From: Candidatus Nanohaloarchaea archaeon
GTDB taxonomy: Archaea; Nanohalarchaeota; Nanosalinia; Nanosalinales; Nanosalinaceae
Direction: 5' to 3'
Length of the DNA: 20,543 bases
NCBI GenBank assembly: GCA_046539225.1
Contig: JBKHHG010000012.1
Span: forward strand, 1 to 20,543
This document shows positions 1 to 20,543 of the stretch, piece after piece. The notes beneath the pieces were generated by a model, which was given only the letters and a program-made list of their open reading frames with translations, was not told the origin of the DNA and ran no database searches. Position 1 is the first letter of the stretch, and each line of letters starts with the position of its first letter. Position numbers and translations under genes: made by a program.

Positions 1-305
1 TCCATTAATTCGATTTCGATGTCGAGGCCTTCCGGTACGTGTACTCTCATGACCTGTCTCAATGCTCGTTCGGAGTCTTCTATGTCGATAAGTCTTTTGT
101 GGACATGCATCTCGTATCTTTCGATTGTGCTTGATCCTTCTCCGTCAGGTGCTTTCCTCGTGGTGATCTTCATGTTTTTGGTTGGAAGCGGTACAGGCCC
201 TGAAACGCTGGCGTTGTACTCGTCTCCGATCTCCAGTATTTCATCTGAAAGTTCATCCACTTTCTCCTGACTGGTGCTTCTGAGCTTTACACGTGCCTTC
301 TGCAT
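1..305 (-). CDS. rps10: 30S ribosomal protein uS10 (3' end runs off the window)
   Basis: Not in the ORF track. Manual translation from ATG at 305 gives MQKARVKLRSTSQEKVDELSDEILEIGDEYNASVSGPVPLPTKNMKITTRKAPDGEGSSTIERYEMHVHKRLIDI..., with the uS10 motifs GPVPLPT and HKRLID. Lies downstream of EF-1alpha. Confidence 0.95.
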   Translation of the reverse strand, partial: MQKARVKLRSTSQEKVDELSDEILEIGDEYNASVSGPVPLPTKNMKITTRKAPDGEGSSTIERYEMHVHKRLIDIEDSERALRQVMRVHVPEGLDIEIELM

Positions 306-327
306 ACAAACCTGATATAGGTTAACT

Positions 328-335
328 ATTATAAA
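328..335 (-). promoter_or_regulatory. Putative TATA box (TTTATAAT) for a leaderless rps10 transcript
   Basis: Minus-strand TTTATAAT centred about 26 nt upstream of the ATG at 305, with no SD motif. Confidence 0.55.
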
Positions 336-341
336 TGGTGT

Positions 342-737
342 TTAGATATCCGGCATCAGCATTCTGGCCTTCACTTCATCGCCGATTACTTGGTACATCT
401 CGGCAAAGGCCTGATCCACCAATACAGGAAAGCCGTTTACTTCTTCTGTTTCGGTGAAATCAATGTATTTGTTGCCGTAGATAACTTCCAACTCCTCTCC
501 GTGTACCTGATATACATCCACGTCCGAAGTCGGGCCATCACCAACTTCAATGGTCTCAACCAGTTTGTCGGAGAGCACTTCTCTCAGTTGTTCAGCATTC
601 CGGTCAGTGGTCCAGATATCCACGTCATCAGGATCCACATCCCGGCCCTTCAACTTCAGGCCCATACTCCCGAACACAAACCATCCCTGGTTTAAATGAG
701 TAGAGACTTCTTCCAGAACCTTGATCTTGGAGTCCAT
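342..737 (-). CDS. Small Pol-beta-superfamily nucleotidyltransferase-like protein (131 aa)
   Basis: WFVFGSMGL...DPDDVDIW matches the hG[S]-x-DxD catalytic signature, and the acidic composition matches the host proteins. Confidence 0.7.
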   Translation of the reverse strand: MDSKIKVLEEVSTHLNQGWFVFGSMGLKLKGRDVDPDDVDIWTTDRNAEQLREVLSDKLVETIEVGDGPTSDVDVYQVHGEELEVIYGNKYIDFTETEEVNGFPVLVDQAFAEMYQVIGDEVKARMLMPDI

Positions 738-832
738 CGTTGAATTGGTTAAGGACGGTATTCTTTAACTTTGTTTTTGATTGAGGTCTTTGTGAACTGA
801 TGTTTGATTAATTCAGGATAAAGAGAGTTTTT

Positions 833-875
833 GGAAAGAAGAATAGGAAAGGATATGTAGGCCTATTTTAGGCCT
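833..875 (-). terminator. Putative terminator: paired AGGCCT-N5-AGGCCT hairpin plus pyrimidine tract after EF-1alpha
   Basis: AGGCCT at 870-875 and 859-864 directly after the TAA, then CATATCCTTTCCTATTCTTCTTTCC on the minus strand. Confidence 0.5.
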
Positions 876-2141
876 TTATTTTTCGTTGACTTCGAGGGCT
901 TGTCCGGCTCCGACTGTCTGTCCCATGTCTCTGATCGCGAATCTTGCTAACTGAGGGATTTCGTCGTTCTCCTCGATTACGAGCGGCTGCTGAGGCCTGA
1001 TTGTGACCTTTGCTGCCTGACCCTGTTTGATGTAGTCTGGGTCTTCGTCGAGTGTCTCTCCCGTCTTTGGATTCATCGTGGAGTGGAGTTCCTCGAATGT
1101 ACAGCTTACCTGTGCCGTGTTGACGTGGAAAACAGGCGTATAACCTTCGGAAATGACGTTTGGATGGTTGAGGACGATTACCTGTGCCCTGAATGTTTCC
1201 GCGACTGTTGGCGGGTTGTCAGAAGGTCCTGCGACGTCTCCTTTCTGGATGTCGTCTGTTCCGACTCCTCTTGTGTTCCATCCGATGTTGTCTCCTGGTT
1301 CTGCTGCGTCGACTTCTTCGTGGTGCATTTCGATTGTCTTGACTTCTCCGCCGACTCCTGCAGGCTCAAATACTATGTCGTCGCCTGGGTTGATCTCTCC
1401 TGTCTCTACTCTTCCGACGGATACTGCTCCGATTCCGGAGATGGAGTATACGTCCTGGATTGGGATTCTGAGCGGTAGGTCGATCGCCTTTTCAGGTTCT
1501 TCGAAGTCGTCCAGAGCCTCTACAAGTGTTGGACCGTCGTACCATCCCATGTCGTCGGACTCATCTACTACGTTGTCTCCTTCGAAGCTTGAGACCGGTA
1601 CGAAGTTGATGTCGCTTGGATTGAAGCCTACTCCCTGGATCAGTTCGGAGACTTCTTCTTTGATTCCGCTGTACGCGTCCTCTGAGAAGTCTTCAAGATC
1701 CATCTTGTTGACTGCAACAGCTAACTGGTCGATTCCCAGCGTCTTTGCAAGGTATGCATGCTCTTTTGTCTGAGGCTGGATTCCGTCGTCAGCCGCGACG
1801 ACGAGTACTGCTGCGTCTGCCTGGGAAGCTCCTGTAATCATGTTTTTAATGAAGTCGCGGTGTCCTGGTGCGTCGATGATCGTGAAGTGGTAGTCGTCTG
1901 TGTCGAACTCCTGGTGAGCCAGGTCGATTGTGACGCCTCTCTCCCTTTCTTCTTCAAGGGAGTCCATCGCGAACGCGAAGTTGAAGCTTTCCTTACCTGC
2001 TTCTTCAGCAGCTTCTTCAAGCTTACGCATCTCTTCTTCTGGAAGGTTTTCAGTGTCCCAAAGCAATCTCCCGATTGTGGTGGACTTTCCGTGGTCTACG
2101 TGACCGATGAATACTAGGTTAATGTGTGGTTTGTCAGCCAT
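876..2141 (-). CDS. tuf: Translation elongation factor EF-1alpha (aEF1A)
   Basis: [29 protein letters not shown] and [11 protein letters not shown] motifs; 421 aa. Confidence 0.99.
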
Positions 2142-2150
2142 TTTTAATTT

Positions 2151-2156
2151 TCACCT
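2151..2156 (-). promoter_or_regulatory. Shine-Dalgarno AGGTGA for tuf
   Basis: Archaeal-type AGGTGA 9 nt upstream of the ATG at 2141. Confidence 0.7.
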
Positions 2157-2221
2157 ATACAGCGTATAATCAACAGTAAACTCTTAAAACTTTAAAAAGG
2201 AGCAGACCTCCACAAAAAACA

Positions 2222-2229
2222 CTTAAGTA
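2222..2229 (+). promoter_or_regulatory. Putative TATA box (CTTAAGTA) with A-rich BRE for the 2251 ORF
   Basis: Centred about 25 nt before ATG 2251 and preceded by AAAAAA, which is typical halophile leaderless promoter geometry. Confidence 0.5.
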
Positions 2230-2250
2230 GTTACTTTACAGTGGTGATGT

Positions 2251-2679
2251 ATGAGTGTTTTTGAAGATACTTACAGCCAGGTACGAGAAGAGGCCTCAGA
2301 ACTCTACAGGAAGACTGACCCTGTAAAGGCCTCGATATGTATAGGATCGGTAGGAGCTGCTCTATACGCCCTGAACGATCCCTCAGCGGCGGAATGGGTC
2401 GATAACGCGGGACATATGGCGACCGGCACCTTCGGATCTTCACTCGCCGACTTAGCATACGATCATCTGGAGCCGGATGATAAGATAGAGAAGACGCGTA
2501 AACCTGCTATGATTCTCTCAGGCCTTGCAACCGGAAACGCTGGACAGGCAGCCCAAGGCCTCGATCTTGTCTCCGGAGGTTACGACTTGAGAAGCGTTGG
2601 AGAGGCCGGAGTTGCAGCGACCGCTAACGCACTTGGCACCGAAAAATACCCGGAAGAACTGGAGAGCAGAAATATCTGA
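2251..2679 (+). CDS. Hypothetical protein (142 aa), Ala/Gly-rich, inserted in opposite orientation between EF-2 and EF-1alpha
   Basis: Fills the intergenic gap, is acidic, has its own TATA-like box and host-like AGGCCT content. No confident family. Confidence 0.75.
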   Translation: MSVFEDTYSQVREEASELYRKTDPVKASICIGSVGAALYALNDPSAAEWVDNAGHMATGTFGSSLADLAYDHLEPDDKIEKTRKPAMILSGLATGNAGQAAQGLDLVSGGYDLRSVGEAGVAATANALGTEKYPEELESRNI

Positions 2680-2725
2680 TGGAAAAGTAAGAAGATAGGA
2701 TGGTTTGAAGGCCTCGAAGAGGCCT
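2680..2725 (-). terminator. Putative terminator: AGGCCT-N5-AGGCCT hairpin plus pyrimidine tract after EF-2
   Basis: AGGCCT at 2720-2725 and 2709-2714, then CCATCCTATCTTCTTACTTTTCC on the minus strand, between convergent genes. Confidence 0.5.
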
Positions 2726-2732
2726 CCAGTTT

Positions 2733-4916
2733 TTATTCCTCGAGGCTTGGCAATTCCTGTTTCATGCCTTTTCTGTCGCGGATCTCCAGGATTTTTTCTT
2801 CCTGAAGGTTTCTGCTTAACGGTTCGAAGATGATGTCGATCAACGAGAAGAATCCTTTTCCGTTGGTCGCGGACTTTAACGCTGCTTCGAAGCCGAAGAG
2901 TTCTTCTACAGGGAGTTTGCAGCGGATGATCGCTGAGTCTCCTTCTTCGTCCATGTCGATGATGTCTCCTCTCCTGTTGTTGACCTCTGTCATTGCATCT
3001 CCCATCGTGTCGCTTGGCGTATCAATTCTCATCTTCTGTTTTGGCTCTATGAGTCTTGGAGTAGCCTGTAGGAAGCCGCGTTTCATCGCGTCTTTCGTTG
3101 CTGGGATCATCTGGGCTGGGCCTCTGTGGATCGCGTCTTCGTGCAGCTTGGCGTCGTGAAGCTTGACTTTGAGGCCTATCACCGGTTCATTTGAGAGCGG
3201 TCCTTCGTCGCAGAACTCTTGGAACGCGTCAACCAGGTATTCCTGGATCTCTCTCAGGTTTTTGATTCCTCTTGATGAGTTGATCAGCAGGTTTTCCTCA
3301 TAGGCCTCCATGATGTCGTCGGCTTCGTCCTGGTCCATTCCTGCTTCGACGAGCGCGTCTCTTACTTCTGTCTCGTCGTCTGCCTGCATCTTTAGTTCTT
3401 TGTAGTCTTCTTTGAGGAACTTTCTGACTGATTCGTCGATCGGTTCGACGCTCATAACCAGTTGGTTGTGCCGGTTAGGCGACTTTCCTGTTACTTCAGG
3501 CGATTCTTCGTCGATGCCCTCCCTGAATACGACGATAGGTTCGGAGACGTTGATGTCGATTCCCTGCTCGTCAAGGTACCTCTCTACTTTCGCCTCGATG
3601 TGCAGCTCTCCAAGGCCTGATACCAGGGTTTCTCCTGTTTCTTCATCGATCTCTACTTCGATGGTGTTGTCCTCTTTGGCTCGTTTCCTCAAGGCCTCGA
3701 TAAGTTTTGGTAAGTCGCTTGTGCGTTTTGGTTCGATGCTTTTGGTTACAACAGGTTCGAATACGTGTTCGATCTGTTCAAACGGCTGGATCTCTTCTTC
3801 TCCTTCAAGTATGAAAGTTTCTCCTGTTGAGAAGTCCGGTCCTGTGATTGCGGCAATGTTTCCGCAGGGTACTTCGTCGACCGTCAGCTTTCGAGGCCCT
3901 GAATAAATTCCGACTTGCTGGGCTCTCTCCGTTTTTTGAGATCCGATGCCGTAGAGCTCGTCTCCTTCTCTAACTGTTCCGGAGAACAGTCGTGCTGTGG
4001 CGATTGTTCCTGCGTGTTCGTCGTCCTCTACGTTTGTGACGACTCCGACCAGTCTTCCGTCTTTGTCGTGCTTCATCATGTCCTCTCCGACTTCGCTTTC
4101 TACGTCGCCTGGCCATACTGCCGGGATTCTCCATTCTGCTGATTTCTGCGGGTTGATGAGGTGGCCGACTACCATGTCGAGTGTGACTTCTTCGATCGGT
4201 GCGTCTTCTCTGAGGCCTTCGTGGTCTCCGTCGTTTACCCTGTCAATTATATCTCCGAAAGTGATGCCTGTTTTCTGCATGTAGGGTGCGGAGATAGCCC
4301 AGTTTTTCAGTGCGCTTCCGAACGCAACTGTTCCATCGTTTACGCTCATCTTCCATTTCTCGGCGGTTTCATCGTCCGCGTACTTTCTTAATGCGGTGTT
4401 GACTTCTCTGATGATCTTTGTGAACCTTTCCTGCATTTCCTCGGGTGTTAGCTGCATCTCTTCGATCAGTCTGTCGACTTTGTTGATGAAGAGGATTGGC
4501 TTGACGCCTTCGTTCAAGGCCTGTTTCATAACTGTCTCTGTCTGAGGCATTACGCCGTCGACAGCGTCCACAAGCACGAGAACTCCATCGACCGCACGCA
4601 TCGCCCGGGTAACGTCTCCACCGAAGTCGACGTGGCCTGGTGTATCGATAAGATTGATGAGGTAGTCGTCTCCTTCGTGTTCGTGGACCATTGAAACGTT
4701 TGCGGAGTAGATAGTGATTCCTCTTTCCGCTTCCTGATCATCAAAGTCCATGAACCGCTGGTCTCCTGCCAGCTTCTCCGAGATCATTCCTGCTCTCGCA
4801 AGCAGGTTGTCTGTTAGAGTTGTTTTTCCGTGGTCGATGTGTGCAGCGATTGCGATGTTCCTGATGTGCTCAGGATCGTTAATCACTTCTTTAATTGCGT
4901 CAAGCTCGTCAGACAT
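2733..4916 (-). CDS. fusA: Translation elongation factor EF-2 (aEF2)
   Basis: AHIDHGKTT, ERGITI, DTPGHVDF and NKVD motifs; diphthamide loop LHEDAIHRGPAQ; 727 aa. Confidence 0.99.
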   Translation of the reverse strand: MSDELDAIKEVINDPEHIRNIAIAAHIDHGKTTLTDNLLARAGMISEKLAGDQRFMDFDDQEAERGITIYSANVSMVHEHEGDDYLINLIDTPGHVDFGGDVTRAMRAVDGVLVLVDAVDGVMPQTETVMKQALNEGVKPILFINKVDRLIEEMQLTPEEMQERFTKIIREVNTALRKYADDETAEKWKMSVNDGTVAFGSALKNWAISAPYMQKTGITFGDIIDRVNDGDHEGLREDAPIEEVTLDMVVGHLINPQKSAEWRIPAVWPGDVESEVGEDMMKHDKDGRLVGVVTNVEDDEHAGTIATARLFSGTVREGDELYGIGSQKTERAQQVGIYSGPRKLTVDEVPCGNIAAITGPDFSTGETFILEGEEEIQPFEQIEHVFEPVVTKSIEPKRTSDLPKLIEALRKRAKEDNTIEVEIDEETGETLVSGLGELHIEAKVERYLDEQGIDINVSEPIVVFREGIDEESPEVTGKSPNRHNQLVMSVEPIDESVRKFLKEDYKELKMQADDETEVRDALVEAGMDQDEADDIMEAYEENLLINSSRGIKNLREIQEYLVDAFQEFCDEGPLSNEPVIGLKVKLHDAKLHEDAIHRGPAQMIPATKDAMKRGFLQATPRLIEPKQKMRIDTPSDTMGDAMTEVNNRRGDIIDMDEEGDSAIIRCKLPVEELFGFEAALKSATNGKGFFSLIDIIFEPLSRNLQEEKILEIRDRKGMKQELPSLEE

Positions 4917-4994
4917 TGTAGTATTACACCAAGTTTATACCTCAAGATTCTTTACAAGCTTTAAAAATGGATTCCGGAGTTTTTCCCCGGGAAA

Positions 4995-5108
4995 TTAGCT
5001 TGCTGTCAGATGTGCGAAAGTAACAAGTGTTAGAGAGATAATGAAAAGAGAGGAATGGATGTTGCCGTACTTTGAGGCCTGTATCAAGGCCTGGGTCAGT
5101 TTTTTCAT
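4995..5108 (-). CDS. Candidate 37-aa hydrophobic micro-protein
   Basis: ATG 1 nt after the rps7 stop. Translation MKKLTQALIQASKYGNIHSSLFIISLTLVTFAHLTAS*, with a basic N-terminus and hydrophobic C-terminus. Confidence 0.3.
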   Translation of the reverse strand: MKKLTQALIQASKYGNIHSSLFIISLTLVTFAHLTAS

Positions 5109-5109
5109 C

Positions 5110-5739
5110 TTACCGGGCGCCTTCTGCTTCCCGCTCCTTTCTTTCACGGGTCATAACGGCTCTCACACTGTTGTCGTTGTTGTGTGCGCCGACTAACTCG
5201 TTTTTCAAGGCCTCGACCGCGTCTTCCGAGGATGCGAGCCGGTTTTCGTAGGCTCCCTGCACCAGAAGTCTTATTGCAAGGTCGACCCTTCTCTGAGGTG
5301 AGACGATGACAGCTTTTCTTGCTCTTGCGCCTCCTCTCTGGTAGGTGACGACCTCTTCGACAGGTGCGGAGTTCTCGATCGCGTTGACGAGCACCTGGAT
5401 AGGGTTCTCATCAGTCTCCTCTTCTATTTTTTCGAATGTTTCTTCAATTATCTTCCAGAGCTTTGCTTTTTGGCCGGTGTTCCTTCCGGATGTGAGCAAG
5501 TGTTTGTTGCCGCGGTGTCCTGCGACGTACATCCTGTTGAGAAGCCTTTCGACGACCGGCACATCTGCCTTGTAGAACTGTTTGTCGGTGTGACGGCCTT
5601 TGCTCCGTGGCTCCATGATGTTTTCAAGGTTGACGTATCTTACAAGGCCGTCGTCCTCTACCTCTACCTCTTTTGCATCCCATCTTCCAAATGTAAGGAT
5701 CTCATCGTCTTCAATGTTGATTGTAGCAGCGTTACTCAC
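5110..5739 (-). CDS. rps7: 30S ribosomal protein uS7 (GTG start)
   Basis: VVERLLNRM, NPIQVLVNAIENSAPVEE and VSPQRRVDLAIR motifs; between rps12 and EF-2. Confidence 0.97.
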   Translation of the reverse strand: MSNAATINIEDDEILTFGRWDAKEVEVEDDGLVRYVNLENIMEPRSKGRHTDKQFYKADVPVVERLLNRMYVAGHRGNKHLLTSGRNTGQKAKLWKIIEETFEKIEEETDENPIQVLVNAIENSAPVEEVVTYQRGGARARKAVIVSPQRRVDLAIRLLVQGAYENRLASSEDAVEALKNELVGAHNNDNSVRAVMTRERKEREAEGAR

Positions 5740-5801
5740 TCGGGAACACCTCTGGTGTTTTCTGCGTGATCAAGAAAATCATCTGTATTTTCGTTGTCCA
5801 T
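5736..5801 (-). other. 21-codon upstream ORF made largely of the double-hairpin element; its stop overlaps the rps7 start (GTGA)
   Basis: SD-like GGTGAT at the rps12 stop and ATG at 5801. Translation MDNENTDDFLDHAENTRGVPE*. TGA 5738-5736 overlaps GTG 5739-5737. Confidence 0.5.
5741..5793. repeat. Double-hairpin palindromic element, copy A
   Basis: c-GGGAACACC tct GGTGTTTTC-tgcgtgatcaa-GAAAAT catctgt ATTTTC-g; same architecture as the three copies in asnB-dph6. Confidence 0.7.
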
Positions 5802-5809
5802 TTTTTTGA

Positions 5810-6232
5810 TCACCGTGTTGGTTTCTCCTGCTCTCCCGCAACAAGTTCCTCGAGAGAGATACCGTTTACCTTGATTACCTTGTACCTGACAGTTGGAATA
5901 TCTCCTTTAGGCCCGGAGTCCGCTCCACCGATCCCTTCGATCAGGACCTCGTCGTGCTCATCGATATACTCTATGGCTCCGTCGCCAGGTACAAAAGCTG
6001 TCAACTGTTTACCGTTTTTCAAAAGCTGTACACGCACGCACTTTCTCAACGCGGAGTTAGGCTGCTTTGCTTCGATTATCCTCTTCTCAAGTACGATTCC
6101 TCTTCCCTGGGGTGAACCTTCGAGAGGATCCGCTTTTTCCCTGAGATTCAGCATTCTTCTCTTGTAATCTTTATCGCTCCAGCGGTGCTCCTGCCTCTTC
6201 TTCTTGATCTTACGCGCGCTGTACATTCCCAT
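5810..6232 (-). CDS. rps12: 30S ribosomal protein uS12
   Basis: [24 protein letters not shown] and [10 protein letters not shown] motifs. Confidence 0.99.
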
Positions 6233-6254
6233 ATCACAACACTGAAAACCAAAC

Positions 6255-6262
6255 TTTTTATA
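6255..6262 (-). promoter_or_regulatory. Putative TATA box (TATAAAAA) for leaderless rps12
   Basis: Centred about 26 nt upstream of ATG 6232, with a purine-rich BRE-like GAAAGGGG before it. Confidence 0.6.
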
Positions 6263-6268
6263 CCCCTT

Positions 6269-7828: not shown

Positions 7829-7869
7829 GTGAACAAATTTGTTAAGTTGGAATAAGAAAGATTGAGTTG

Positions 7870-7959
7870 TTACAGTAAAATAGGTAGAGTATAGATAAGG
7901 CCTAAAAGAACTATGATTACAGCAGTTATCTGGTTTTCTCCTCTTTGAGCCTCAACCAT
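7870..7959 (-). CDS. Candidate 29-aa single-TM micro-protein
   Basis: MVEAQRGENQITAVIIVLLGLIYTLPILL*, with a 19-residue uncharged, mostly hydrophobic stretch; co-oriented between nusA and the ABC1 kinase. Confidence 0.4.
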   Translation of the reverse strand: MVEAQRGENQITAVIIVLLGLIYTLPILL

Positions 7960-8063
7960 TCTAGATAGATTTGACCTATCTGGGCTTCTCAGGCCTTTCG
8001 TCGGATCCTTATCCTGTAAGGGCTGTTCCCTCGTCTGAAGGCTCAGCGGATAAGAAGCTTGGT

Positions 8064-8486: not shown

Positions 8487-8536
8487 TCTATCACTTAGAA
8501 ACGTGTTTTACGTGTAATCATTAATAGGCCCCCAAC

Positions 8537-8544
8537 TTTTATAA
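8537..8544 (-). promoter_or_regulatory. Putative TATA box (TTATAAAA) upstream of nusA
   Basis: In the 67-bp rpoA''-nusA gap, about 50 nt upstream of the ATG. Confidence 0.4.
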
Positions 8545-9668: not shown

Positions 9669-12137
9669 TCACCTCTCGATCTCCGTGGAGATAAGGCCTC
9701 TATCTGATTTCTGTGGGTCGACTCCGTCCTCTCCGGCTCTGAACTGTACGATCTCTCCCTGCGCGTTTCTGACGGTCTGGTCGTACTCCACTCTCAGGTC
9801 CTGTAGAGCGTTTGAGATACGACGGTACATGTATCCGGAGGTCTTCGTGTTAAGGGATTTGTCCGCCAGAGCCTTTCTCTGGCTCATCTGGTGGAAGAAC
9901 ATCTCCTGTGCGTCGAGGCCTTCCAGGATTGACGAGCTTACGAATCCTTTGGATTTTGGACTCATCTCTCCTTTCTTGAAATGTGACAGGGTTCTCTCCT
10001 TGTATCCTCTTACGATTCTCGTGTCCCGGACGGAGTTCTGTCCAAGCATTCCAGCCATCGTCGTAACGTTTTGCATCGATCCTCGAGCTCCTGAGTCTGC
10101 CATGACATAGGCGGAGGAGCTTTCGTCGAACTGGTCCGCGATAATGTCTCCGATCTCTGTAAAGGCCTCGTTCAGTTTTTTGGTTACACGGATCTCACGG
10201 GATTCCTCGATAGTTTTCCCTGTGATTGCTTCCATTTTTCCTTCCTCGTATTCCTGAAGCAGTTCCTCTGTATCTTCTACTGAGGCCTCGATTATCTCCT
10301 TGATTCTCTCTGTTGCCTCGTCAGGTACTTCAAGGTCTTCAAGGCCTATGCTGAATCCTCTCTTTGTGAGGAAGATTGCTCCGACCCTGGAGACACGGTT
10401 GAGGAACTCTGCTACCATGTCGCTGCCGTATTCAATGTCGAGCTGCTGGATAATTTCTCCTCCGTAGTCTCCGAGCGCGTCCTCGTCCAGTACTCCCTTG
10501 ACAAGTTCACCGTCTTCGATCACTACTTCGTCGTCCTCTCCCTCGTTGATAGTCAGGGAGATATCTTCCGGTATGAATATGCTTACAAGGTCTCTTCCGG
10601 ATACTTTCTCTCCTTCAGGCAGGTCTTTCTCGTGTTCTCCTGCTTCCGCGAGAATGTTGAAGGCCTTTTCTCTGTCCAGTTCCTTGTCTTCCTGTGTCAA
10701 CAGGTAGAGGCCTGAAACATAGTCCTGAAGCATGCCAACGATTGGTCCTCCCATTTTCGGGGATTTGACGTGTTCCTGGACCTTCATCAGTTCCTCTGCT
10801 TCTGCACGGGCTTCTTCTGTCTGCGGTACGTGCAGGTTCATCTCGTCTCCGTCGAAGTCTGCGTTGTAAGGTGCACAGACGTTCAGGTTCAATCTGAATG
10901 TTCTGTACGGTAGTACTCGGACTTCGTGCGCCATGATCGACATTCGGTGCAGCGAGGGCTGCCTGTTGAACAGTACTGTATCTTCATCTTTCAGGTGTCT
11001 CTCGACCGTCCAGCCTTCTCCAGGCTCTACGGCCTCTACAAGGTCTTCGATGTTTTCCTCTGTCACTCTTCTTCTTGAGCCGTCGGGCTGGAACACGTAA
11101 TTGACTCCTGGGTGTGTGTCAGGCCCGTTTTCAAGCCATTCCATGCACTTTTCGTAGTTTCTCTCGGTGACTTTGACAGGGATGGTCAGCTTCTTGGCTA
11201 TTATCTGCGGAACCCCTACCTCGTTGATCCCTATGTTGGGATCCGGGGAGATTACTGTACGTGCGGAGAAGTTGACTCTCTTTCCGATCAGGTTTTCACG
11301 GAACCTTCCCTCTTTGCCCTGTACTCTTTCAATTAAGGATTTTAATGATCTTCCGGAGCGGTGTCTTGCTGGTGGCACGCTGCTCATGTCGTTGTAGAAA
11401 AGCGTTGCGACGTGGTACTGGAGCAGCTCCCAGAGATCATCGATGATGAAGTCCGGAGCTTCAATTTCAATATTGTTCTGCAGCCGTTTGTTGATCCGGA
11501 TGACATCGACGAGTTTATGCGTGATATCGTCTTCTGATCTCTCTCCTGTCTCCAGTGTAATTGAAGGCCTTATCGTAACCGGTGGAACGGGGATCTTTGT
11601 CAGTATCAAGTCTTCAGGCCTTCCACCCTCTATATCGATTTTTTCCGCTACTTCATCCGGGATCTCCTTGAACCGTTCCCTTATCTCTGACGGAGTCAGT
11701 TTCTCTCCTTCCTCGTAGAACGTATAAGGCTTGTCAAGCTTGATGTCCTCGATTTCGTGGCCGCACTCTGGGCATTCGTTCATCATGTTGGATTTTCTGA
11801 AGGGTTTGTCCTCGTCCTTGATCGCGAGGTTGTGACACTCTTTACACGCGAACCGGAGAAGATCTCTAACCTTTTTGGCGTAGAGCACGTGAACGACAGG
11901 CCTTGAAAGCGTGATCTGTCCGAAGTGGCCGTTACATTCTCTGATTCTTCCGCCACAGGTCTGGCATGTCATCCCTGGGTCGATTACGCCGAGCGCAGGA
12001 TCCATTACTCCGTCCTCGACAGGGTAGCCGTCTGCGTCGTAGACTTCGGCCTTGTCGATCTCCTTTACAGCCATGTTGTCGAGTTTTTCTGCGCTTACAA
12101 CTCCGAATTCAAGTTTGTCAATGTTCTTTGTCTCCAT
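9669..12137 (-). CDS. rpoA1: RNA polymerase subunit A' (Rpo1N)
   Basis: Catalytic [11 protein letters not shown], Zn clamp CQTC...[18 protein letters not shown] and [15 protein letters not shown] upstream. Confidence 0.99.
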
Positions 12138-12139
12138 CT

Positions 12140-13936: not shown

Positions 13937-13939
13937 TTT

Positions 13940-15397
13940 TTACTCTACCTCGATTCCCTCCTGCTCCAAAGTGGTTTTCAAAGCGTTCTTCTCCATATCG
14001 TTCATACCTGTCGAGACATCGGCGCACATCGCAAGATGGGTTCTCAACCCGATGTTCATACCTTCAGGCGTCTTGATCGGGCATATACGTCCCCAGTGCG
14101 TCGGATGAAGATCACGGGCCTCAAAGTGCTGCCTGTCGGAACTCAAAGGAGAAACAATATTCCTCAGGTGTGAAAGTGTCTTGATCCGGTTGTTTCTCTC
14201 CAGAGTCTGGCATACGCCGGTTCTGCCGCCCACCCAGTTGCCTGTAGCCATCGCTCCCATGATCTGCTTCGTAAGAGTGTCGGAAACCACTGTCGACTGT
14301 AGAGAAGGCAGCCGGCCTCTCTTCGCTGATTTCTGGAAGTTGTACTTCATCCTCGCAACCAGACCCCATTTTCCGAGGAAGACGCTTCTGAACTGCATCT
14401 CCAGCAGCTCTCCCGCCAGGTTCAGCCTCTTGTTGGCGTAGTGGTCGATGTCATCAGGTGTTACATCTCCTTTGCCGAGTGCTATAGTATTCCTTATCAT
14501 GTTCGCGAGGAACTTCGCCTTCTCAGGCCTTGCATCTTCTTCCTGTCCAAGATGCGGAAGAAGGTAATCATCCAAGATGCTGGAGACTCTTTCCTCCACG
14601 TCGCTTGTTACTCCTGCCCTGTTGGCGATGTACTCGAAGGCCTCTTCCTGGTTCGAGGCGTCGACCTCGTAGAGATTGAGGTAGACATCTGAGGAGTACT
14701 CTTCGCCGATCTCTTCAATTATCTCTTTATCGGTTTCATATCCCAAGGCTCTGATCAAGGCGACAGCAGGAGTATTTTTGACGTTGGCAAATGAGATCTC
14801 CACTATATCGTCATCCCTTTCAAGCACGTGTCTCTGTACGTAACCCGAGTTCTCGGAGTTGACACGGCACTTCTGCTCATCATCGTCCTGAAGGTATACA
14901 GGCTTGTTGTTCGCGAGCTCTTCCATCGCGATAATCGTCTTCTCCGAACCGTTGATCAGGAAGTAGCCTCCCGGATCCTTGGGGTCAAGCCCGTTCTCAC
15001 GCATCTCTTCATCATCCCACTCAGAGGTCCAGCACAGATCCGAACCAACCATAACCGGGATCTCCCCGATCGTAACTTCTTCGACTTCCTGCTTCACACC
15101 TTCAAAGATCGGAGCCATCTCCACCTTAATCTCGCTCGAATACGTCAAATTCCTCATCCGGGCCTCCCGCGGCGTTATATCCCTGACCGAACCATCCGCT
15201 TCATTGATCTCAGGCCTCTCAATCTCAACATCCACAATTTTGATTACAAGCTCCTCTCCATCAGGGAGCTCCGGCTCAATGCTTCCAACCTCGTTGAGAA
15301 TAGCCTGGATCCTGTCCTCAACAAACCGGTTGTAGCTCTCGATCTGGTGTTTTACAACGTTACGGTCTATCAACTGGCTTAAAAACTCTTCATTCAT
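13940..15397 (-). CDS. rpoB2: RNA polymerase subunit B'' (Rpo2N)
   Basis: HQIESYNRF, PREARMRNLTY, DPGGYFLINGSE, DDIDHYANKRL and ARDLHPTHWGRICP motifs. Confidence 0.98.
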   Translation of the reverse strand: MNEEFLSQLIDRNVVKHQIESYNRFVEDRIQAILNEVGSIEPELPDGEELVIKIVDVEIERPEINEADGSVRDITPREARMRNLTYSSEIKVEMAPIFEGVKQEVEEVTIGEIPVMVGSDLCWTSEWDDEEMRENGLDPKDPGGYFLINGSEKTIIAMEELANNKPVYLQDDDEQKCRVNSENSGYVQRHVLERDDDIVEISFANVKNTPAVALIRALGYETDKEIIEEIGEEYSSDVYLNLYEVDASNQEEAFEYIANRAGVTSDVEERVSSILDDYLLPHLGQEEDARPEKAKFLANMIRNTIALGKGDVTPDDIDHYANKRLNLAGELLEMQFRSVFLGKWGLVARMKYNFQKSAKRGRLPSLQSTVVSDTLTKQIMGAMATGNWVGGRTGVCQTLERNNRIKTLSHLRNIVSPLSSDRQHFEARDLHPTHWGRICPIKTPEGMNIGLRTHLAMCADVSTGMNDMEKNALKTTLEQEGIEVE

Positions 15398-15402
15398 CTT
15401 TT

Positions 15403-15639
15403 TTACCTGTCAACTACAACTCTGTAATAAGTGGTTTTTCCGGCAGTAGGGCTTTCACGCTCGATACGGATCACATCCCCCTCCTCAACATCCATCTGCT
15501 TCAAAGCCGCGTCAGTCCTCTCGATCTTCGGCAGCTTATACTTCTCAGTATCAAACTTCTCAAGAAGATCCTCGACTTCATCTTCATCTATTTTTTCATG
15601 CTTCGGAACGGCCTCGTGGTCACGTACATCGATCGCCAT
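15403..15639 (-). CDS. rpoH: RNA polymerase subunit H (Rpo5)
   Basis: HEAVPKHE, LPKIERTD and GDVIRIERESPTAGKTTYYRVV motifs; first gene of the RNAP operon. Confidence 0.98.
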   Translation of the reverse strand: MAIDVRDHEAVPKHEKIDEDEVEDLLEKFDTEKYKLPKIERTDAALKQMDVEEGDVIRIERESPTAGKTTYYRVVVDR

Positions 15640-15730
15640 TGTTTTTTGCCCTCGGAGAAAGTTACAGATAGAGATACCCCTGTAAACTTTAAATAGGTGG
15701 TGAGATCAGGCGAAAAGTATTTAAACAGGC

Positions 15731-16393
15731 CTACCATATATCCGTCGATCTACGCATACTCCGGACCTCCTCGCCAACAACCACGTGATCCAGAAGCTCA
15801 AGGCCTAAACTCTCCCCAAGATCAGCTAAATCATCGGTAAACCTTTTATCCTGATCCGTAGGCCTTGACTTCCCCGAAGGATGATTATGAGCCAGTACAA
15901 AAGCAGAGGCATCCTTCTTTAAACCTTCAGCAAGCAGCTCCCGCTCCTCAGTTCTAACACTTGCCACAGAACCCTCGAACTCCTTCTCAGCCACCACTTC
16001 ATTCCCAGAATTAAGGTAGAAGACTCTGAGAACCTCCGAAGACTTGAAACGCAGATCTTCTACCCTGGCCTTCACATCCGAAAGATTTTCAATCTTTTCT
16101 CGTTCCTCACGTTGAAGCCTCAGGCCTAACTCACCGATTGCCTTCAACTGTCCCGCCTTCACCCGCGAAATACCCTCCAACTGCTTTAAATCCTCCAAAG
16201 AGGCCTCAGAGAGTTTTTCCAGGGAAAACTCCTCCAGCACCTCGTAACTCAGCTCCTTCACATTCTTACCCTGAATCCCGGTTCTCAGTAAAATCGCGAG
16301 AAGCTCCGCATCGCTCAAAGCCTCAACACCTTTCTCCTCCAGTTTTTCCCGAGGCCTCTCGCTTTCAGGCATATCATGGATCGTATAATCCAT
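15731..16393 (-). CDS. radC: RadC / UPF0758 JAB-domain protein
   Basis: ERPREKL...ALSDAELLAILLRTG N-terminus, HhH GISRVKA, and JAB AHNHPSG...D...LLDHVVV. Confidence 0.93.
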   Translation of the reverse strand: MDYTIHDMPESERPREKLEEKGVEALSDAELLAILLRTGIQGKNVKELSYEVLEEFSLEKLSEASLEDLKQLEGISRVKAGQLKAIGELGLRLQREEREKIENLSDVKARVEDLRFKSSEVLRVFYLNSGNEVVAEKEFEGSVASVRTEERELLAEGLKKDASAFVLAHNHPSGKSRPTDQDKRFTDDLADLGESLGLELLDHVVVGEEVRSMRRSTDIW

Positions 16394-16455
16394 ATTTTCT
16401 TTTTGCCAAGGCCTGTAAAAATAGTTTTTTGAGAATTTGTGTTTAAATATTAGAT

Positions 16456-16908
16456 ATGAAAAAGCAGGGGCTGCTTCATCTTCACGGCCTTTTACACCAG
16501 TTCAAGGAGCACTATGAAGAAGCAGAGGGAGAGGAGCTGGATCTGCTGGAGTACGATGAGAGAGGGGTAGGTCCGACCTCAATCCATGCATCAAAAAGTG
16601 AGCATAAAGAGGCTGTTTTCGATCTCGGCAGTTCTCTTCAGGAAGAGCTGAATGATTACAGTCCTGATGTTGAGACGGAAGAACTTTATGAAAATGTTTT
16701 GGAGAAAGCGGCGGAGCTTTACAGGCCTGAGCATGATGACGAAGTGTTTTTGAACCTTGAGCATGTAGGCCTCACCCTTAGAGATGCCAGAGTACTGTCA
16801 TCGGAGACCCCAGCAGAACACAGATCGGTTTTCGGGCGTTCAGGCCTTGTTGTCCCGGCGTATGAGGTTGAGGAATGGTCGCGGGAGACGGTTGAGCAGC
16901 CGGGATAA
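16456..16908 (+). CDS. UPF0058-family protein with C-terminal extension, copy 1
   Basis: MKKQGLLHLHGLL...Y.ERGVGPTSIHASKSEHKEAVFDL is the UPF0058 signature. Confidence 0.85.
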   Translation: MKKQGLLHLHGLLHQFKEHYEEAEGEELDLLEYDERGVGPTSIHASKSEHKEAVFDLGSSLQEELNDYSPDVETEELYENVLEKAAELYRPEHDDEVFLNLEHVGLTLRDARVLSSETPAEHRSVFGRSGLVVPAYEVEEWSRETVEQPG

Positions 16909-16950
16909 ACGACCGATAAATAAAGATTCTCTAAGTATTGGCCCCTTGGG

Positions 16951-16988
16951 AAAAATCAGGCCATAAGCCCCTGATATTTTTTACTTTT
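16951..16988 (+). terminator. Imperfect hairpin plus T-tract between the UPF0058 paralogues
   Basis: AAAAATCAGG-ccataagcc-CCTGATATTTT followed by TTACTTTT. Confidence 0.35.
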
Positions 16989-17006
16989 TGGACTTATTTT
17001 ATCTCT

Positions 17007-17480
17007 ATGAGGAAGCAGGAGTTGGTTCATATTCATGGGCTATTGGATAGTGTTCGGAAGCACTATGATCAGGAATCAGATCAAACTATAGGGCCTTCAA
17101 AGTATATTGAGAGAGGGGTTTTGCCTACATCCTTACATAAGTCTAAGACAGATCACAAAGACGCAGTCCTAGAACTTGGAAACTCCATTGTTCAAGAAAT
17201 CAATAAGCCAGGATCAACTGAAGCCAGTTTAGATACGTTGTATAATGCCGTTTTAGACGCGGTGGTTGACCAATACGAAAGAACATACATAGATCAACAA
17301 TCAGAGGAAATCTCTGTGAGTCTTGGATTAACCCGATTAACTGAGGAACAGGCTAAGCGCCTAGATAGTGAGACTTCTGTAGATTACGAAAAATATTCTA
17401 CAGGAGGTTCTCGTCTAAAAGTCAATAGAGAAGAAGCAGAGGAATGGGCTGAAGAAACAATCGGACAACTTAATAACTGA
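17007..17480 (+). CDS. UPF0058-family protein with C-terminal extension, copy 2 (157 aa)
   Basis: MRKQELVHIHGLL...ERGVLPTSLHKSKTDHKDAVLEL. Start set to ATG 17007 by alignment with copy 1. Confidence 0.85.
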   Translation: MRKQELVHIHGLLDSVRKHYDQESDQTIGPSKYIERGVLPTSLHKSKTDHKDAVLELGNSIVQEINKPGSTEASLDTLYNAVLDAVVDQYERTYIDQQSEEISVSLGLTRLTEEQAKRLDSETSVDYEKYSTGGSRLKVNREEAEEWAEETIGQLNN

Positions 17481-17523
17481 AATTTGGACCAATTAATAAT
17501 TTTATGGGAGCTAACTTTGGGAT

Positions 17524-18306
17524 ATGGAAAAACTGATGCAAAATCCTGATTTCGAGGAGGCCTCTGAAATACTGAAGGAGTACCTCTCGAGAGAATACAC
17601 CGTCCAGGTCAACGGGCTCTGTACTGTGAATTATACGGGCCGAGCTAGTTCAAAACTGGACCGGGGTGAGAGACTGGTTATCAAGAAGCAGGACTCCGCG
17701 ATTCTCGTACACGGCCCGGAGAACTATCAGCCTAAGAACTGGCAGCCGGAAGTGGATTCTTACAGCGTTGAGGTAAGGGATGAGGCCTTGGTTTTGGAGG
17801 CGATGAGAAGGGATCCTGACGAGGTTGTTGAGATTTATTTCGACAGTATCTCTCTTGTAGCAGTGGATCGGATGGTGGACAAGTCCGAGCTGAAGATTGC
17901 GGGCCACGAAGTCGATATACACGAGGCTATAGAGGAAAGGCCTGAAATGGTTGAAGAAGGCCTCAAAGTCGTGGAACGTGAGAAAGAGACTCCAGCCGGA
18001 TTCATCGACCTCTTCGCCCGCGACGAACAGGATCGATACACTGTTATCGAGGTAAAGCGGAATCCTGACTACAACACCGTCCTCCAGCTTCAGAGATACG
18101 TCGAAGAGATAGAGGACGAGTTCAACTCCGATATAAGAGGAATTCTGGTTGCGCCGAAGATGACTGACAAAGTCCTCGACTACCTGGAGGATCGAGGCCT
18201 CGAGTTTGTGGAAGTTGAGATGGAGGAAGTAATACCAAGCTATGAAGCCGTCGACAACAGCCAGAAAGGCCTCAGCGACTTCTCCCCGGATTATGAAGTA
18301 AAATAA
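17524..18306 (+). CDS. nucS: Mismatch-specific endonuclease NucS/EndoMS
   Basis: CTVNYTGRASSKL, K.DSAILVH...PKNWQP, IDLFARD...IEVKR (PD-D/ExK) and QLQRY motifs. Confidence 0.95.
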   Translation: MEKLMQNPDFEEASEILKEYLSREYTVQVNGLCTVNYTGRASSKLDRGERLVIKKQDSAILVHGPENYQPKNWQPEVDSYSVEVRDEALVLEAMRRDPDEVVEIYFDSISLVAVDRMVDKSELKIAGHEVDIHEAIEERPEMVEEGLKVVEREKETPAGFIDLFARDEQDRYTVIEVKRNPDYNTVLQLQRYVEEIEDEFNSDIRGILVAPKMTDKVLDYLEDRGLEFVEVEMEEVIPSYEAVDNSQKGLSDFSPDYEVK

Positions 18307-18330
18307 GAAAGGAATAGGAAAAGATTTTTG

Positions 18331-18531
18331 TTAGAAGTCTTCGTGGATCCAGTAACGCTCGACTTTCTCCGCGTTGAACCAGTGTGTCTCGTCTTCTCCA
18401 CCGACTTGGATAATCGGTTCCTCCAGGAACTCTGTGTTGTGCTTGTGAAGCTCAGCTTCCTTACCTGAATCAAACTGGATCATAACTTCTCCATTCTTCT
18501 CTACCGAATCCTTCAACTTTTCATACATCAT
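18331..18531 (-). CDS. Small acidic hypothetical protein (65-66 aa)
   Basis: Fills the nucS-asnB gap, has host-like acidic composition, and is followed by a pyrimidine tract (18301-18330) on the minus strand. Confidence 0.7.
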   Translation of the reverse strand: MMYEKLKDSVEKNGEVMIQFDSGKEAELHKHNTEFLEEPIIQVGGEDETHWFNAEKVERYWIHEDF

Positions 18532-18596
18532 ATGATTCGCCTATTAGAAAAATGAATCCAAACTCCGATAAAAGGTTCGGTTCCATACCAGTAACC

Positions 18597-20147
18597 ATGT
18601 GCGGTATCGCAGGAGCCAAAAACCAGGAAAAAGCAGAACAACTTCTGGAACTCCAGAGCCACAGAGGCCAGAGCCGCGATACTCTCAAAACAGGAAAATT
18701 CTCTCTCGGCAACAACCTGCACTCAGTCGTCGGCAACGTACAACAGCCTCTCAAAGAAGGAGGAGTACTGACGGCGAACTGCGAAATATACAACTGGCGC
18801 GAATTAAACAAGAAATACGGCTGGGAGACGGAAAACGACGCAGAAACACTGCTGAAACTACTGGACAAAAAAGGAAATGAAGCACTGGAAGAACTGGACG
18901 GCATCTACGCCTTTGCATACATACGCGACAACCAAGTTATGGTGGCGCGGGACAGGCTCGGCGTTAACCCGGTCTGGTACACAGAAAAGGATGGAGGGTT
19001 CGCTTTCGCATCCGAAAGACAGGCTCTGGAGAAAGCAGGGTACGAAGCCCGGGAACTACACCCCAGAAAAATACTGAAGTACAACCTTGAAACAGAAGAG
19101 ATCGAGTTCGAGCACCGAGAATTCTTCGAGATCGATGTCCCGAAGAACTCAGCCAGTTCTTCTGAAAACCAGAAAACTCCGGAAGAGTTTTCGGATGAGG
19201 ACAAAGATATAGAGGAGGCCGCAGAAGAAATCAAGGACAAGTTCCTGGAATCAGTTGAGAAAAGAGTTCCGGAAGGCGAAGTAGGGCTTTTATTCTCCGG
19301 CGGTGTCGATTCTACGATGATTGTAGCAGCACTACAGGAATTAGGTAAAGATTTCACTGCCTACACTGCTGGCATCCAGCATGGAAACGTGGATGCACCT
19401 CGAGACATGGATTGGGCGGAAGAAGTCGCGGAAGAAATGGGTATAGAACTGGAGAGCTACGAAGCCGATTTAGAGGAGGTCGAGGAAGTTCTTCCCGAGT
19501 TGACGGACTGGATCTCATCGACAAGCGTCGTTAAAAACGGTGTCGCCCTGCCGTTCCACTTCTCTCTCCGAGGAACTGCAAGTTCCGAAGGTCCAGAAGA
19601 CTCACAGTCTTCGTCTGAAAAAGTCGTCTTCTCAGGGCTGGGAAGCGAGCAGCTCTACGCAGGCTACAGTCGAATGGAGAAATACTTGAACAAGGAATGT
19701 CTCTCCGGGTTAAGAAAACTGTTTGAACGCGACTTGTACCGGGACAACGTTGTCAGCTTCCGCAACAGCCGCGAGCTCCGTGTTCCGTTCCTGGATCATG
19801 GCTTGATTGAGCATGCTTTGACGATTCCGGGCGAATTCAAGAAGAAAGATGATTACAGGAAGTACGTTCTCAGAAAAGCTGCGGAAAAGCTTGGCGTACC
19901 GGAGAAAGTCGCCTGGAGAGGTAAGACCGCGGCCCAGTACGGCAGCAACTTCGACAAAGCGATCTCCCGCCTCGCCAAGGACAAAGGCTTTAATCACAAG
20001 CAGGAATACTTGAACTCGTTACGAGGCGACGAAAATCGGAGATTTTCTGAGCAGCAGAAGATCTCTGATCTTCAACTGCCAAACAAGAAGTTGGCGGCCC
20101 TTACCTCGGGTGGCAAGGATTCGAACGCTGCGCTTTACAGGATGTAA
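18597..20147 (+). CDS. asnB: Asparagine synthetase B-like glutamine amidotransferase, N-terminal part of an AsnB-Dph6 fusion ending at a premature TAA
   Basis: MCGIAG (Ntn Cys, start 18597), HRG, NCEIYN, ARDRLGVNP, FASE, PP-loop LFSGGVDS, RVPFLD and KYVLRKAA. A second PP-loop, TSGGKDS, lies just before the stop. Confidence 0.88.
   Translation: MCGIAGAKNQEKAEQLLELQSHRGQSRDTLKTGKFSLGNNLHSVVGNVQQPLKEGGVLTANCEIYNWRELNKKYGWETENDAETLLKLLDKKGNEALEELDGIYAFAYIRDNQVMVARDRLGVNPVWYTEKDGGFAFASERQALEKAGYEARELHPRKILKYNLETEEIEFEHREFFEIDVPKNSASSSENQKTPEEFSDEDKDIEEAAEEIKDKFLESVEKRVPEGEVGLLFSGGVDSTMIVAALQELGKDFTAYTAGIQHGNVDAPRDMDWAEEVAEEMGIELESYEADLEEVEEVLPELTDWISSTSVVKNGVALPFHFSLRGTASSEGPEDSQSSSEKVVFSGLGSEQLYAGYSRMEKYLNKECLSGLRKLFERDLYRDNVVSFRNSRELRVPFLDHGLIEHALTIPGEFKKKDDYRKYVLRKAAEKLGVPEKVAWRGKTAAQYGSNFDKAISRLAKDKGFNHKQEYLNSLRGDENRRFSEQQKISDLQLPNKKLAALTSGGKDSNAALYRM
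19141..19193. repeat. Double-hairpin palindromic element, copy B (in-frame in asnB)
   Basis: c-GAAGAACT cagcc AGTTCTTC-tgaaaacca-GAAAACTC cggaa GAGTTTTC-g; encodes PKNSASSSENQKTPEEFS. Confidence 0.85.
19569..19613. repeat. Double-hairpin palindromic element, copy C (in-frame in asnB)
   Basis: cga-GGAACT gca AGTTCC-gaaggtcca-GAAGACT cac AGTCTTC-g; encodes RGTASSEGPEDSQSS. Confidence 0.8.
20030..20074. repeat. Double-hairpin palindromic element, copy D (in-frame in the AsnB-Dph6 linker)
   Basis: c-GAAAATC gga GATTTTC-tgagcagca-GAAGATC tct GATCTTC-a; encodes ENRRFSEQQKISDL. Confidence 0.85.
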
Positions 20148-20543
20148 CGCAGGAACAATGAGATCTCGTGTCTGGTGACTCTGCGGTCGGAGAACAGGGA
20201 TAGTTACATGTTTGATTCGAAGAAGTCGGAGAAAGACCTGGAATGGCAGAGCGAGCAGCTGGGAGTTCCGTTACTGGTTCAGGAGACTGAGGGTGAGAAA
20301 GAGGAAGAACTGGATGATTTAGAAAAAGCGATGAACCGGGCGCGGAAGGAGTACGGTGTGGAAGGCGTTGTCGCCGGCGCCCTCGCATCAACCTACCAGC
20401 GCGACCGCGTTGACAGGGTGGCGGAGAAAGCCGGTCTGAAAGTTTTCGCTCCGCTCTGGCGCGAGGATCAGGAACGCTACATGAAATGGTTGATACGTGA
20501 AGGCTTCGAAGTCGAGATTACCGATGTGGCGGCGCGAGGCCTC
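20085..20543 (+). pseudogene. dph6: Diphthine-ammonia ligase (Dph6, PP-loop ATPase) domain interrupted by in-frame TAA at 20145-20147; runs off the window
   Basis: The same frame reads KLAALTSGGKDSNAALYRM*RRNNEISCLVTLRSENRDSYMF...GEKEEELDDL...GVVAGALASTYQRDRVDRVAEKAGLKVFAPLW...LIREGFEVEITDVAARGL. The frame is open for 132 codons after the stop. Confidence 0.85.

Follow-up and report, generated by a model that had tools for sequence, protein, structure and literature searches.

What kind of force could make one six-base palindrome the most frequent word of an archaeal genome? The question is raised by a stretch of 20,543 nucleotides from a Candidatus Nanohaloarchaea archaeon of the Nanosalinaceae (assembly GCA_046539225.1, contig JBKHHG010000012.1; the whole stretch is called the window here), through which the hexamer AGGCCT is scattered. 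A preliminary description, made from the letters of the window, had likened AGGCCT to HIP1, the highly iterated palindrome (HIP) of cyanobacteria, and had proposed a methylation-driven ratchet on a GGCC core, a site for a chromosome-organising protein or a self-recognition tag as its cause. We found that AGGCCT behaves like HIP1 but does not come with the DNA methylase expected of such a word, and we tentatively favour selection for binding by a site-specific protein as its explanation, to which we would give slightly less than an even chance.

Abundance and specificity of AGGCCT

A direct count gives exactly 72 copies in the window, the first at position 25 and the last at 20537-20542, whereas the runner-up among 6-bp palindromes has 14. 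This is 14.4 times the uniform expectation (72/(20543/4096)) and agrees with the earlier estimate of about 72 copies and about 14-fold excess. As had also been described, all three reading frames and the intergenic DNA are affected, with 62 copies within called genes (15 as R-P, 17 as [KEQ]-A-x and 30 as x-G-L) and 10 outside them. The enrichment is not confined to the window, which is contig C12 of an assembly that we label G000 (607 kb, 82% complete). G000 carries 2,850 copies on 38 of 38 contigs, or about one per 210 bases, and its contigs range from 1.7 to 5.8 per kb, so that the window, with 3.5 per kb, is under average. AGGCCT is the most frequent hexamer of G000 by a factor of 2.5, at 20 times the order-0, 16 times the order-1 and 5.9 times the order-2 expectation, the last of these models being itself inflated by the word. 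HIPs are recognised by an at least 15-fold genome-wide over-representation, and AGGCCT in G000 reaches that level.

Codon bias had been thought an unlikely cause, and the excess does survive synonymous shuffling. In the window genes, 500 shuffles averaged 8.4 copies and never exceeded 17, against the 62 observed. Over the 727 genes of G000, which were predicted with our own hexamer-model open reading frame caller, the 2,557 coding copies (446, 932 and 1,179 by frame) compare with 448 +/- 21 after amino-acid- and codon-preserving shuffles (5.7-fold), and the 279 intergenic copies compare with 7.6 expected (37-fold). The synonymous opportunities, meaning peptide contexts that could be written with AGGCCT, are 75-85% filled: 446 of 522 for R-P, 1,179 of 1,494 for x-G-L and 912 of 1,213 for [KEQ]-A-[FLSYCW]. 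When codon usage outside opportunities is taken as the reference, the odds ratio reaches 36.5 in G000, 34.3 in the first 800 kb of the enriched genome G005 and 10.2 in the first 400 kb of the enriched single-contig genome G034, as against 0.6 in the low genome G024. Divergent spacers are rich in the word even in their cores, at over 40 bp from either start codon: G000 has 23 such sites where 0.5 would be expected, and G005 has 52 where 1.2 would be. AGGCCT is also dense right behind stop codons, with 12.6 per kb over the first 10 bp.

The force acts at the DNA level and requires the whole hexamer. In G000, TGGCCA, CGGCCG and GGGCCC reach only 0.3-0.8 times the order-1 expectation, and the single-mismatch words of AGGCCT lie at 0.7-1.6 in the order-1 comparison. 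TGGCCG, counted 200 times against 255 for its control, is near control in the enriched genomes. The commonest 8-mer that contains AGGCCT is GAGGCCTC, and the flanks are loose overall. One-mismatch neighbours are not depleted overall (1.13-1.71 times expectation, with transitions leading) and therefore look like decay products rather than drained precursors. Another tetramer, CTAG, is depleted 16-fold in G000 (133 copies, 0.06 times expectation); it is not depleted in the enriched congeners G002 and G004, and its depletion is thus independent of AGGCCT.

Distribution among relatives and conservation of sites

Among 50 genomes of the family, 12 carry about 2 to 4.7 AGGCCT per kb, G003 is intermediate (762 copies) and 37 have at most about 0.7 per kb, and none of 24 genomes outside the family is enriched. 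No rRNA was found in the DNA examined. In a tree of RpoA' only, made by a quick search and unable to order gains and losses, all 13 enriched genomes (the 12 high ones and G003) fall into one clade of 26 with 13 low genomes (SH-aLRT 100). Genus g2 combines two high with four low species, and G003 is sister to the high G002. Judged by these sequences, the trait flips between sister species, and as these genomes are of 1 Mb, the causal gene should in principle be findable by subtraction. The RpoA' gene of G003 retains 11 opportunities with a single site, which suggests a recent loss of the trait.

A further mark of HIPs, the conservation of sites between related genomes, was observed at the RpoA' loci, the place at which the orthologous sites were compared. 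Among pairs with 81-84% nucleotide identity, the two high genomes G005 and G025 share 12 of 14 sites, but only 2 of 14 are retained between G005 and the low G067 and 3 of 14 between G002 and the weak G003. Three high-high pairs kept 12/14, 10/12 and 3/4 of their sites.

The idea that genomes which lose the trait actively purge GGCC was rejected for G003 and G067, in which TGGCCG stands at 1.3 and 1.0 times its control; among the genomes inspected it is low only in G020, G021 and G024. A C5 methylase with an NgoPII-family nuclease, whose specificity we take to be GGCC, was seen in 2 of the 50 genomes, G024 (L207:488-2386) and G020 (L001). Both are among the three AGGCCT-lowest genomes, and the third, G021, is equally low without a match to the NgoPII-family nuclease. 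G024 avoids GGCC (observed/expected ratio, O/E, 0.41) and ACGT (0.32).

Scans by pattern beyond the family gave little. At least 238 viral loci of 3 kb or more were retrieved, and among the matches listed none was both acidic and AGGCCT-rich. Three non-halophilic-looking viral contigs of low acidic content (L521, L525 and L555) reach 2.8-4 AGGCCT per kb; tandem repeats or eukaryote-like DNA may account for them. No dispersed enrichment was seen among 78 listed matches from other prokaryote genomes, which does not establish absence. Of 40 listed strain differences (482 more exist), a sample without statistical power, none touches or creates an AGGCCT site.

Effect on protein sequence

AGGCCT appears to alter the encoded proteins. 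When 488 pairs of orthologues are aligned (134,923 residues), 2,205 opportunities are counted in G000 and 1,164 in G024, with an excess in each class (R-P 373/174, [KEQ]A[FLSYCW] 852/405 and GL 1107/738, or 1.5-2.1-fold), while six control classes of reversed or related peptides gave G000/G024 ratios of 0.87-1.19. This amounts to about 1,000 extra compatible peptides over about 135,000 aligned residues compared with the negative relative. The same excess, although weaker, is found in G005 and G034. Orthologues present in all three of G000, G005 and G024 contain 806 opportunities that only G000 has, 626 that only G005 has and 212 that only G024 has, and the turnover of opportunities is therefore largely lineage-specific. 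As an independent but small check, a DnaG gene of a high genome has 5.1 opportunities on average (10 genomes), and one of a low genome has 2.6 or 2.9 (groups of 5 and 16 genomes); in the very conserved RpoA' the numbers are equal across the same comparison (9.3, 9.4 and 8.7). Since G024 avoids GGCC and encodes a C5 methylase beside its NgoPII-family nuclease, part of the peptide contrast may be loss in G024. The peptide effect matters for phylogeny and for the reading of halophilic adaptation in these proteomes.

Spacing between sites

Exclusion between neighbouring sites was measured as the ratio of both-used to one-used coding opportunity pairs relative to independence, pooled over three genomes. 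The factor is 0.12 (0.05-0.26) at 8-10 bp, 0.45 at 11-13 bp, 0.51 at 14-17 bp and 0.59-0.77 at 18-29 bp, and stays at about 0.94 from 30 bp on. Generic GC-rich 6-mers repeated directly or inverted at 6-30 bp gave 0.83-1.22, so that general hairpin avoidance accounts for little of the exclusion, and 30 bp is the physical scale that any mechanism has to explain. Pairs that do not lie inside one gene are most frequent at 11-12 bp, with 21 pairs against about 4 per distance elsewhere and a smaller peak at 29 bp; three of the 11-12 bp pairs lie in the window.

Search for the responsible gene

No cognate DNA methyltransferase common to the enriched genomes was found; an enzyme that is divergent or belongs to the host may exist. 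Of 11 enriched genomes, PF00145 matches one (G004), PF02086 matches none and PF01555 matches one strongly (G022). PF02384 is strong in 2 of 5 enriched genomes tested, and PF01170 also matches in the low G024. In the single-contig G034, four DNA-methylase families gave weak matches only, none of them convincing, and a scan of the G000 proteins for methylase motifs found nothing. Together with the finding that GGCC is not enriched in other flanks, this speaks against a methylation ratchet on a GGCC core as it had been proposed.

Gene subtraction drew on the 727 genes of G000, on the low G024 in full and on parts of two high genomes, the initial 800 kb of the 1,046 kb of G005 and the initial 400 kb of the 916 kb of G034. 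We estimated a chance of about 77% that a gene common to all enriched genomes shows in two of the three partial sets. The 319 proteins found only in G024 were listed without annotation, and the subtraction thus covers gain, not loss, of genes. Eleven candidates were tested, and about 50 other shared accessory genes lie outside the tested set. DnaG (36/50), a membrane Mrr, a Cdc6 paralogue, a 419-aa coiled protein, PolB2, a winged-helix protein, ThiI, an Hjc-like nuclease, a 144-aa protein of unknown kind, an AlkA-like protein and a SWIM protein were dropped, as they occur in low genomes or are missing from a single-contig high genome. A Pfam scan of 199 of the 216 G005-only proteins (E<=1e-7) yielded no new candidate.

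Two of the dropped genes have conspicuous settings. The Hjc-like gene (159 aa, L124:1186-1665 in G005) occurs in 45 of 50 family genomes and is 71-92% conserved in nearly all, which is unusual for its size; by inspection, it adjoins HerA-like and Hef-like genes. The Cdc6 paralogue lies beside a PolB2-type cassette (G000:C22:2921-7384; L179:5001-9336) in high and low genomes alike.

A proposed binding protein and its rivals

What has to be explained is a switchable force of about 36-fold odds that is specific for the hexamer, works at the DNA level and saturates within about 30 bp. Under the explanation that we favour, a small sequence-specific dimeric DNA-binding protein would read the palindrome, and each bound site would give a slight advantage in fitness or fixation. 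A second site inside the footprint of the protein would add little, neighbours one helical turn apart could be co-occupied and might be tolerated or even favoured, and the force would be lost or gained when the binder is lost, is replaced or changes its specificity. The near-saturation of opportunities, the equal enrichment in promoter-side spacers, the conservation of sites, the peptide excess, the exclusion below 30 bp, the 11-12 bp peak and the lack of a shared DNA methylase all support this explanation. The chromosome-organising protein of the preliminary description fits the short-range exclusion and is our best, although unproven, reading; periodicity was not seen.

Several observations weigh against a binding protein. 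The data do not separate selection from drive, and the binder is a putative one. The 11-12 bp peak was found after looking at many distances, and its pairs could be RNA hairpins; by hand count, the hairpin stem is extended in 12 of the 26 pairs listed for 11-13 bp. No periodicity of 10-11 bp or of 5-120 kb was found among the sites. With regard to the 10-90 kb periodicity attributed to HIPs, the Fourier power was 6.1 in G005 (800 kb) and 5.6 in G034 (400 kb) against 95% permutation maxima of 7.7 and 7.2, for partial chromosomes and with a method that differs from that of Xu et al. Furthermore, Elhai's model of HIP evolution predicts saturation at one site per repair tract (PMC4390886), and with a short patch this would produce the observed exclusion as well.

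The last point belongs to a neutral ratchet, in which short-patch mismatch repair or gene conversion would favour the AGGCCT strand and so fix and protect sites without benefit; it corresponds to Elhai's HIP model if the patch is taken to be about 30 nt long and the methyl mark is left out. We consider it a serious contender, though rather unlikely. Such a drive would be indifferent to frame, would alter peptides and could be switched on and off between sister species, and repair nucleases are at hand, with NucS in the window and an Hjc-like nuclease that is nearly universal. However, a directed converter should drain particular one-mismatch neighbours, whereas those that differ by a transition are enriched, and low values are limited to a few classes of transversion, which vary between genomes. 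No repair enzyme co-occurs with the trait: an AlkA-like orthologue is missing from the enriched G010, PolB2 is present in negatives, and the Hjc-like protein, found in low genomes as well, has no diagnostic residue among 23 aligned sequences. The 11-12 bp spacer peak would also be left unexplained.

An improbable alternative is a methylation-linked HIP whose methylase lies off the symbiont chromosome, being supplied by the haloarchaeal host via cell contact, carried on a mobile element or too divergent for the profiles. The patchy distribution would then follow changes of host or element, and no symbiont gene would be expected to co-occur cleanly. Cyanobacterial alternate HIPs come with a matching methylase (PMC4390886), AGGCCT-methylating systems exist in Alcanivorax (PMC12128166), and methylation across cells has been proposed between a nanohaloarchaeon and its host (PMC11001535). 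The transfer proposed there, however, goes from symbiont to host and not the reverse, and the one nanohaloarchaeal methylome found (PMC11001535 and PMC10266531) has GDGCHC only, in an organism that may or may not be AGGCCT-rich. The two family genomes with the NgoPII-type restriction gene avoid AGGCCT (73 and 97 copies), and a ratchet step would still be needed.

It is very improbable that AGGCCT promotes exchange among the lineages rich in it as a signal for uptake or recombination, similar to a DNA uptake sequence or to the role proposed for HIP1 in transformation. HIP1 increases the efficiency of transformation (bioRxiv 10.1101/2024.09.10.611283) and correlates with genes of type IV secretion systems (PMC13756078). 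Several genes are 72-92% identical between G005 and G034, which belong to different genera and are about 61% identical overall, and one gene is 85% identical to G022 but 57% to the congener G034; these unusually similar genes suggest recent exchange among AGGCCT-rich lineages. Against such a signal, ComEC (PF03772) was found in none of the 50 family genomes while 10 of 14 controls were positive, the TraG/VirB4 profile matches 7 of the 50, all low, and a once-per-fragment signal should saturate at the kilobase scale, not at 30 bp. Motif-free genes, apparently imported, persist in G000, which together with the missing ComEC leaves the proposed self-recognition tag weak.

A codon, amino-acid or RNA-level bias, which could draw on the compatibility of AGGCCT with common codons and on the sites just 3' of stop codons, has a negligible chance and was ruled out as the main cause by the excess over synonymous shuffles in three frames, the enrichment of spacers, the equally rich divergent-spacer cores and the absence of AGGCCT from relatives with similar proteins.

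A candidate binder

Ribbon-helix-helix (RHH) proteins are DNA-binding dimers of a strand and two helices, in which alternate residues of the strand face the DNA. A gene that might encode the binder specifies a 129-aa RHH-like protein (G000:C6:152-541; family 125-130 aa) and lies between an L10e-like gene and a nucleotide-sugar cluster, near a histone-like gene. The protein has a K/T-x-T/S-F-R strand pattern, its model has a coil at 1-9 and helices at 10-21 and 30-45 (pLDDT 87), and the Atlas leads are CopG and RHH_11 at 0.83-0.86. By Atlas names and sequence reading, its distant relatives resemble haloarchaeal CopG-type regulators; no viral relatives were found. Full-length matches of the family occur in the enriched G010 and G022, and there is no match in G003 or G067, which are weak or low, or by hidden Markov model in the whole of G024. 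From 176 pattern matches in metagenomes, nine loci were confirmed: six of six nanohaloarchaeal-type loci with the family have 2.4-4.9 AGGCCT per kb, and three of three with a divergent relative have none in 16.6 kb.

Several findings stand against this candidate. The enriched G004 (97% complete, 70 contigs) gave no match to the family, and neither did 800 of 1,046 kb of G005, which has 3.9 sites per kb and whose corresponding slot is taken by an unrelated RHH-like gene. As the six metagenome loci consist of near-identical contigs in pairs, they represent about three species near genera g1 and g7 and are not independent; the co-occurrence with AGGCCT may be plain ancestry. No match to the family was found in Pfam, among PDB sequences or by fold, so that its assignment to RHH rests on the sequence pattern, the coil-helix-helix model and Atlas leads below 0.9. 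We regard it as doubtful that this protein is the AGGCCT binder. At least as doubtful is a wider scenario, in which a nanohaloarchaeal clade would have recruited a haloarchaeal-type RHH regulator as a sequence-specific chromatin protein, whose 6-bp site would since have been written in every 200 bases or so, rewriting about one residue context per 130 amino acids. If it were true, AGGCCT would be a methylase-independent HIP with an identified reader and a first handle on how HIP-type words arise and vanish, and genome-wide sequence-specific chromatin of this kind would be one not described in prokaryotes.

In different genera, the slot next to the L10e-like gene is occupied by three RHH-like genes that cannot be aligned with one another (L714, L715, L716, L106:4908-5312 and L211:8667-9089), and it is possibly a hot spot of regulator replacement.

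Comparison with known systems

HIP1 (GCGATCGC) has gone unexplained for three decades, is described as confined to cyanobacteria and has a frequency of 0.2-2.73 per kb (PMC5861425). AGGCCT shares with it the character of a very frequent, dispersed palindrome that occurs in all frames and in spacers, is conserved between relatives, is patchily distributed and has no settled function (PMC4390886, PMC5861425, PMC13756078), and the HIP1-like, frame-independent, DNA-level nature proposed for it is thus supported. It is not HIP1 proper, as the word differs from GCGATCGC and the host is not a cyanobacterium but a nanohaloarchaeon, to judge by its acidic archaeal proteins and by the nanohaloarchaeal named homologues of a protein on a neighbouring contig. 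Unlike HIP1, AGGCCT is archaeal, has 6 bp, reaches 4.7 per kb, and has no shared methylase and no ComEC or TraG; its sites measurably exclude each other within 30 bp, and compatible peptides are about twice as frequent. Kilobase periodicity was not seen in 800 kb of G005. The case is of interest as one that is denser than HIP1 and lacks the methylases that the main HIP model depends on.

HIP1 had been presented as the known exception to the avoidance of palindromes. It is indeed an exception, but the statement was incomplete, as alternate HIPs have been published. The nearest published word is one of these, CAGGCCTG of Synechococcus sp. PCC 6312, with 0.37 per kb and an O/E of 14.7, attributed to a methylated GGCC core (PMC5861425, PMC13756078). 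It contains the identical hexamer AGGCCT, and in both cases avoidance of a palindrome has been replaced by enrichment; unlike it, AGGCCT has loose flanks, is about ten times denser and does not go with a preference for GGCC alone. The main text of PMC4390886 mentions neither archaea nor AGGCCT, and we found no report of AGGCCT as an iterated word in archaea in open-access main texts, although supplementary k-mer tables could hold one.

Two other kinds of short words invite comparison. DNA uptake sequences of Neisseriaceae and Pasteurellaceae and Chi sites are non-palindromic, have 8-12 bp and are tied to competence or to RecBCD-type enzymes. AGGCCT resembles them as a short word driven into coding DNA by substitution and able to bias peptides, but it differs from uptake sequences in being palindromic and in a family where ComEC was not found in 50 genomes. 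Restriction-modification sites, the second kind, are normally avoided and not amplified. A StuI-type Type II system of Alcanivorax has the same recognition sequence, AGGCCT, with 1,674 methylated sites that are distributed nearly at random (PMC12128166); here, the word is amplified and no matching enzyme pair was found.

Features of the window

By inspection, the genes of the window encode acidic archaeal core proteins, among them RNA polymerase subunits, S12, S7, EF-2 and EF-1-alpha. The features that bear on AGGCCT are collected in Table 1.

Table 1. Positions of AGGCCT-related features in the window
Feature	Position	Strand	Remark
72 dispersed AGGCCT copies	25..20542		part of 2,850 genome-wide
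Non-coding tandem site pair, 11 bp apart, 3' end of EF-1-alpha-like gene	859..875		example of the 11-12 bp spacer peak
Intergenic tandem site pair, 11 bp apart, between convergent genes	2709..2725		from site positions and gene calls
Intergenic tandem site pair, 12 bp apart, between S7-like and EF-2-like genes	5075..5092		genes named by inspecting translations
RpoA' gene, 10/11 synonymous opportunities written as AGGCCT	9669..12137	-	tree marker; site matrix across 50 genomes
Stretch without the motif, about 2.27 kb, across asparagine-synthase gene, 0/5 opportunities used	18273..20536		9 and 6 sites in the G005 and G034 orthologues

The motif-free stretch probably came in recently from a negative relative, or else it is a misjoin. 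Within 18552-20543, the asparagine-synthase open reading frame stops at a TAA at 20145-20147, inside the apparent start of a second PP-loop domain, and contigs from both well-covered runs read through at that codon. Depth in this part is 2-5 times that found elsewhere, and 18631 is the end point of several contigs; it is therefore likely that another population also has the gene or that the contig has a chimeric end.

A NucS/EndoMS mismatch nuclease (17524-18306) and a RadC-like JAB protein (15731-16393) adjoin the RNA polymerase operon, and their genes make high use of AGGCCT (6/6 and 5/7 opportunities). Two tandem UPF0058-family genes are found at 16456-17480.

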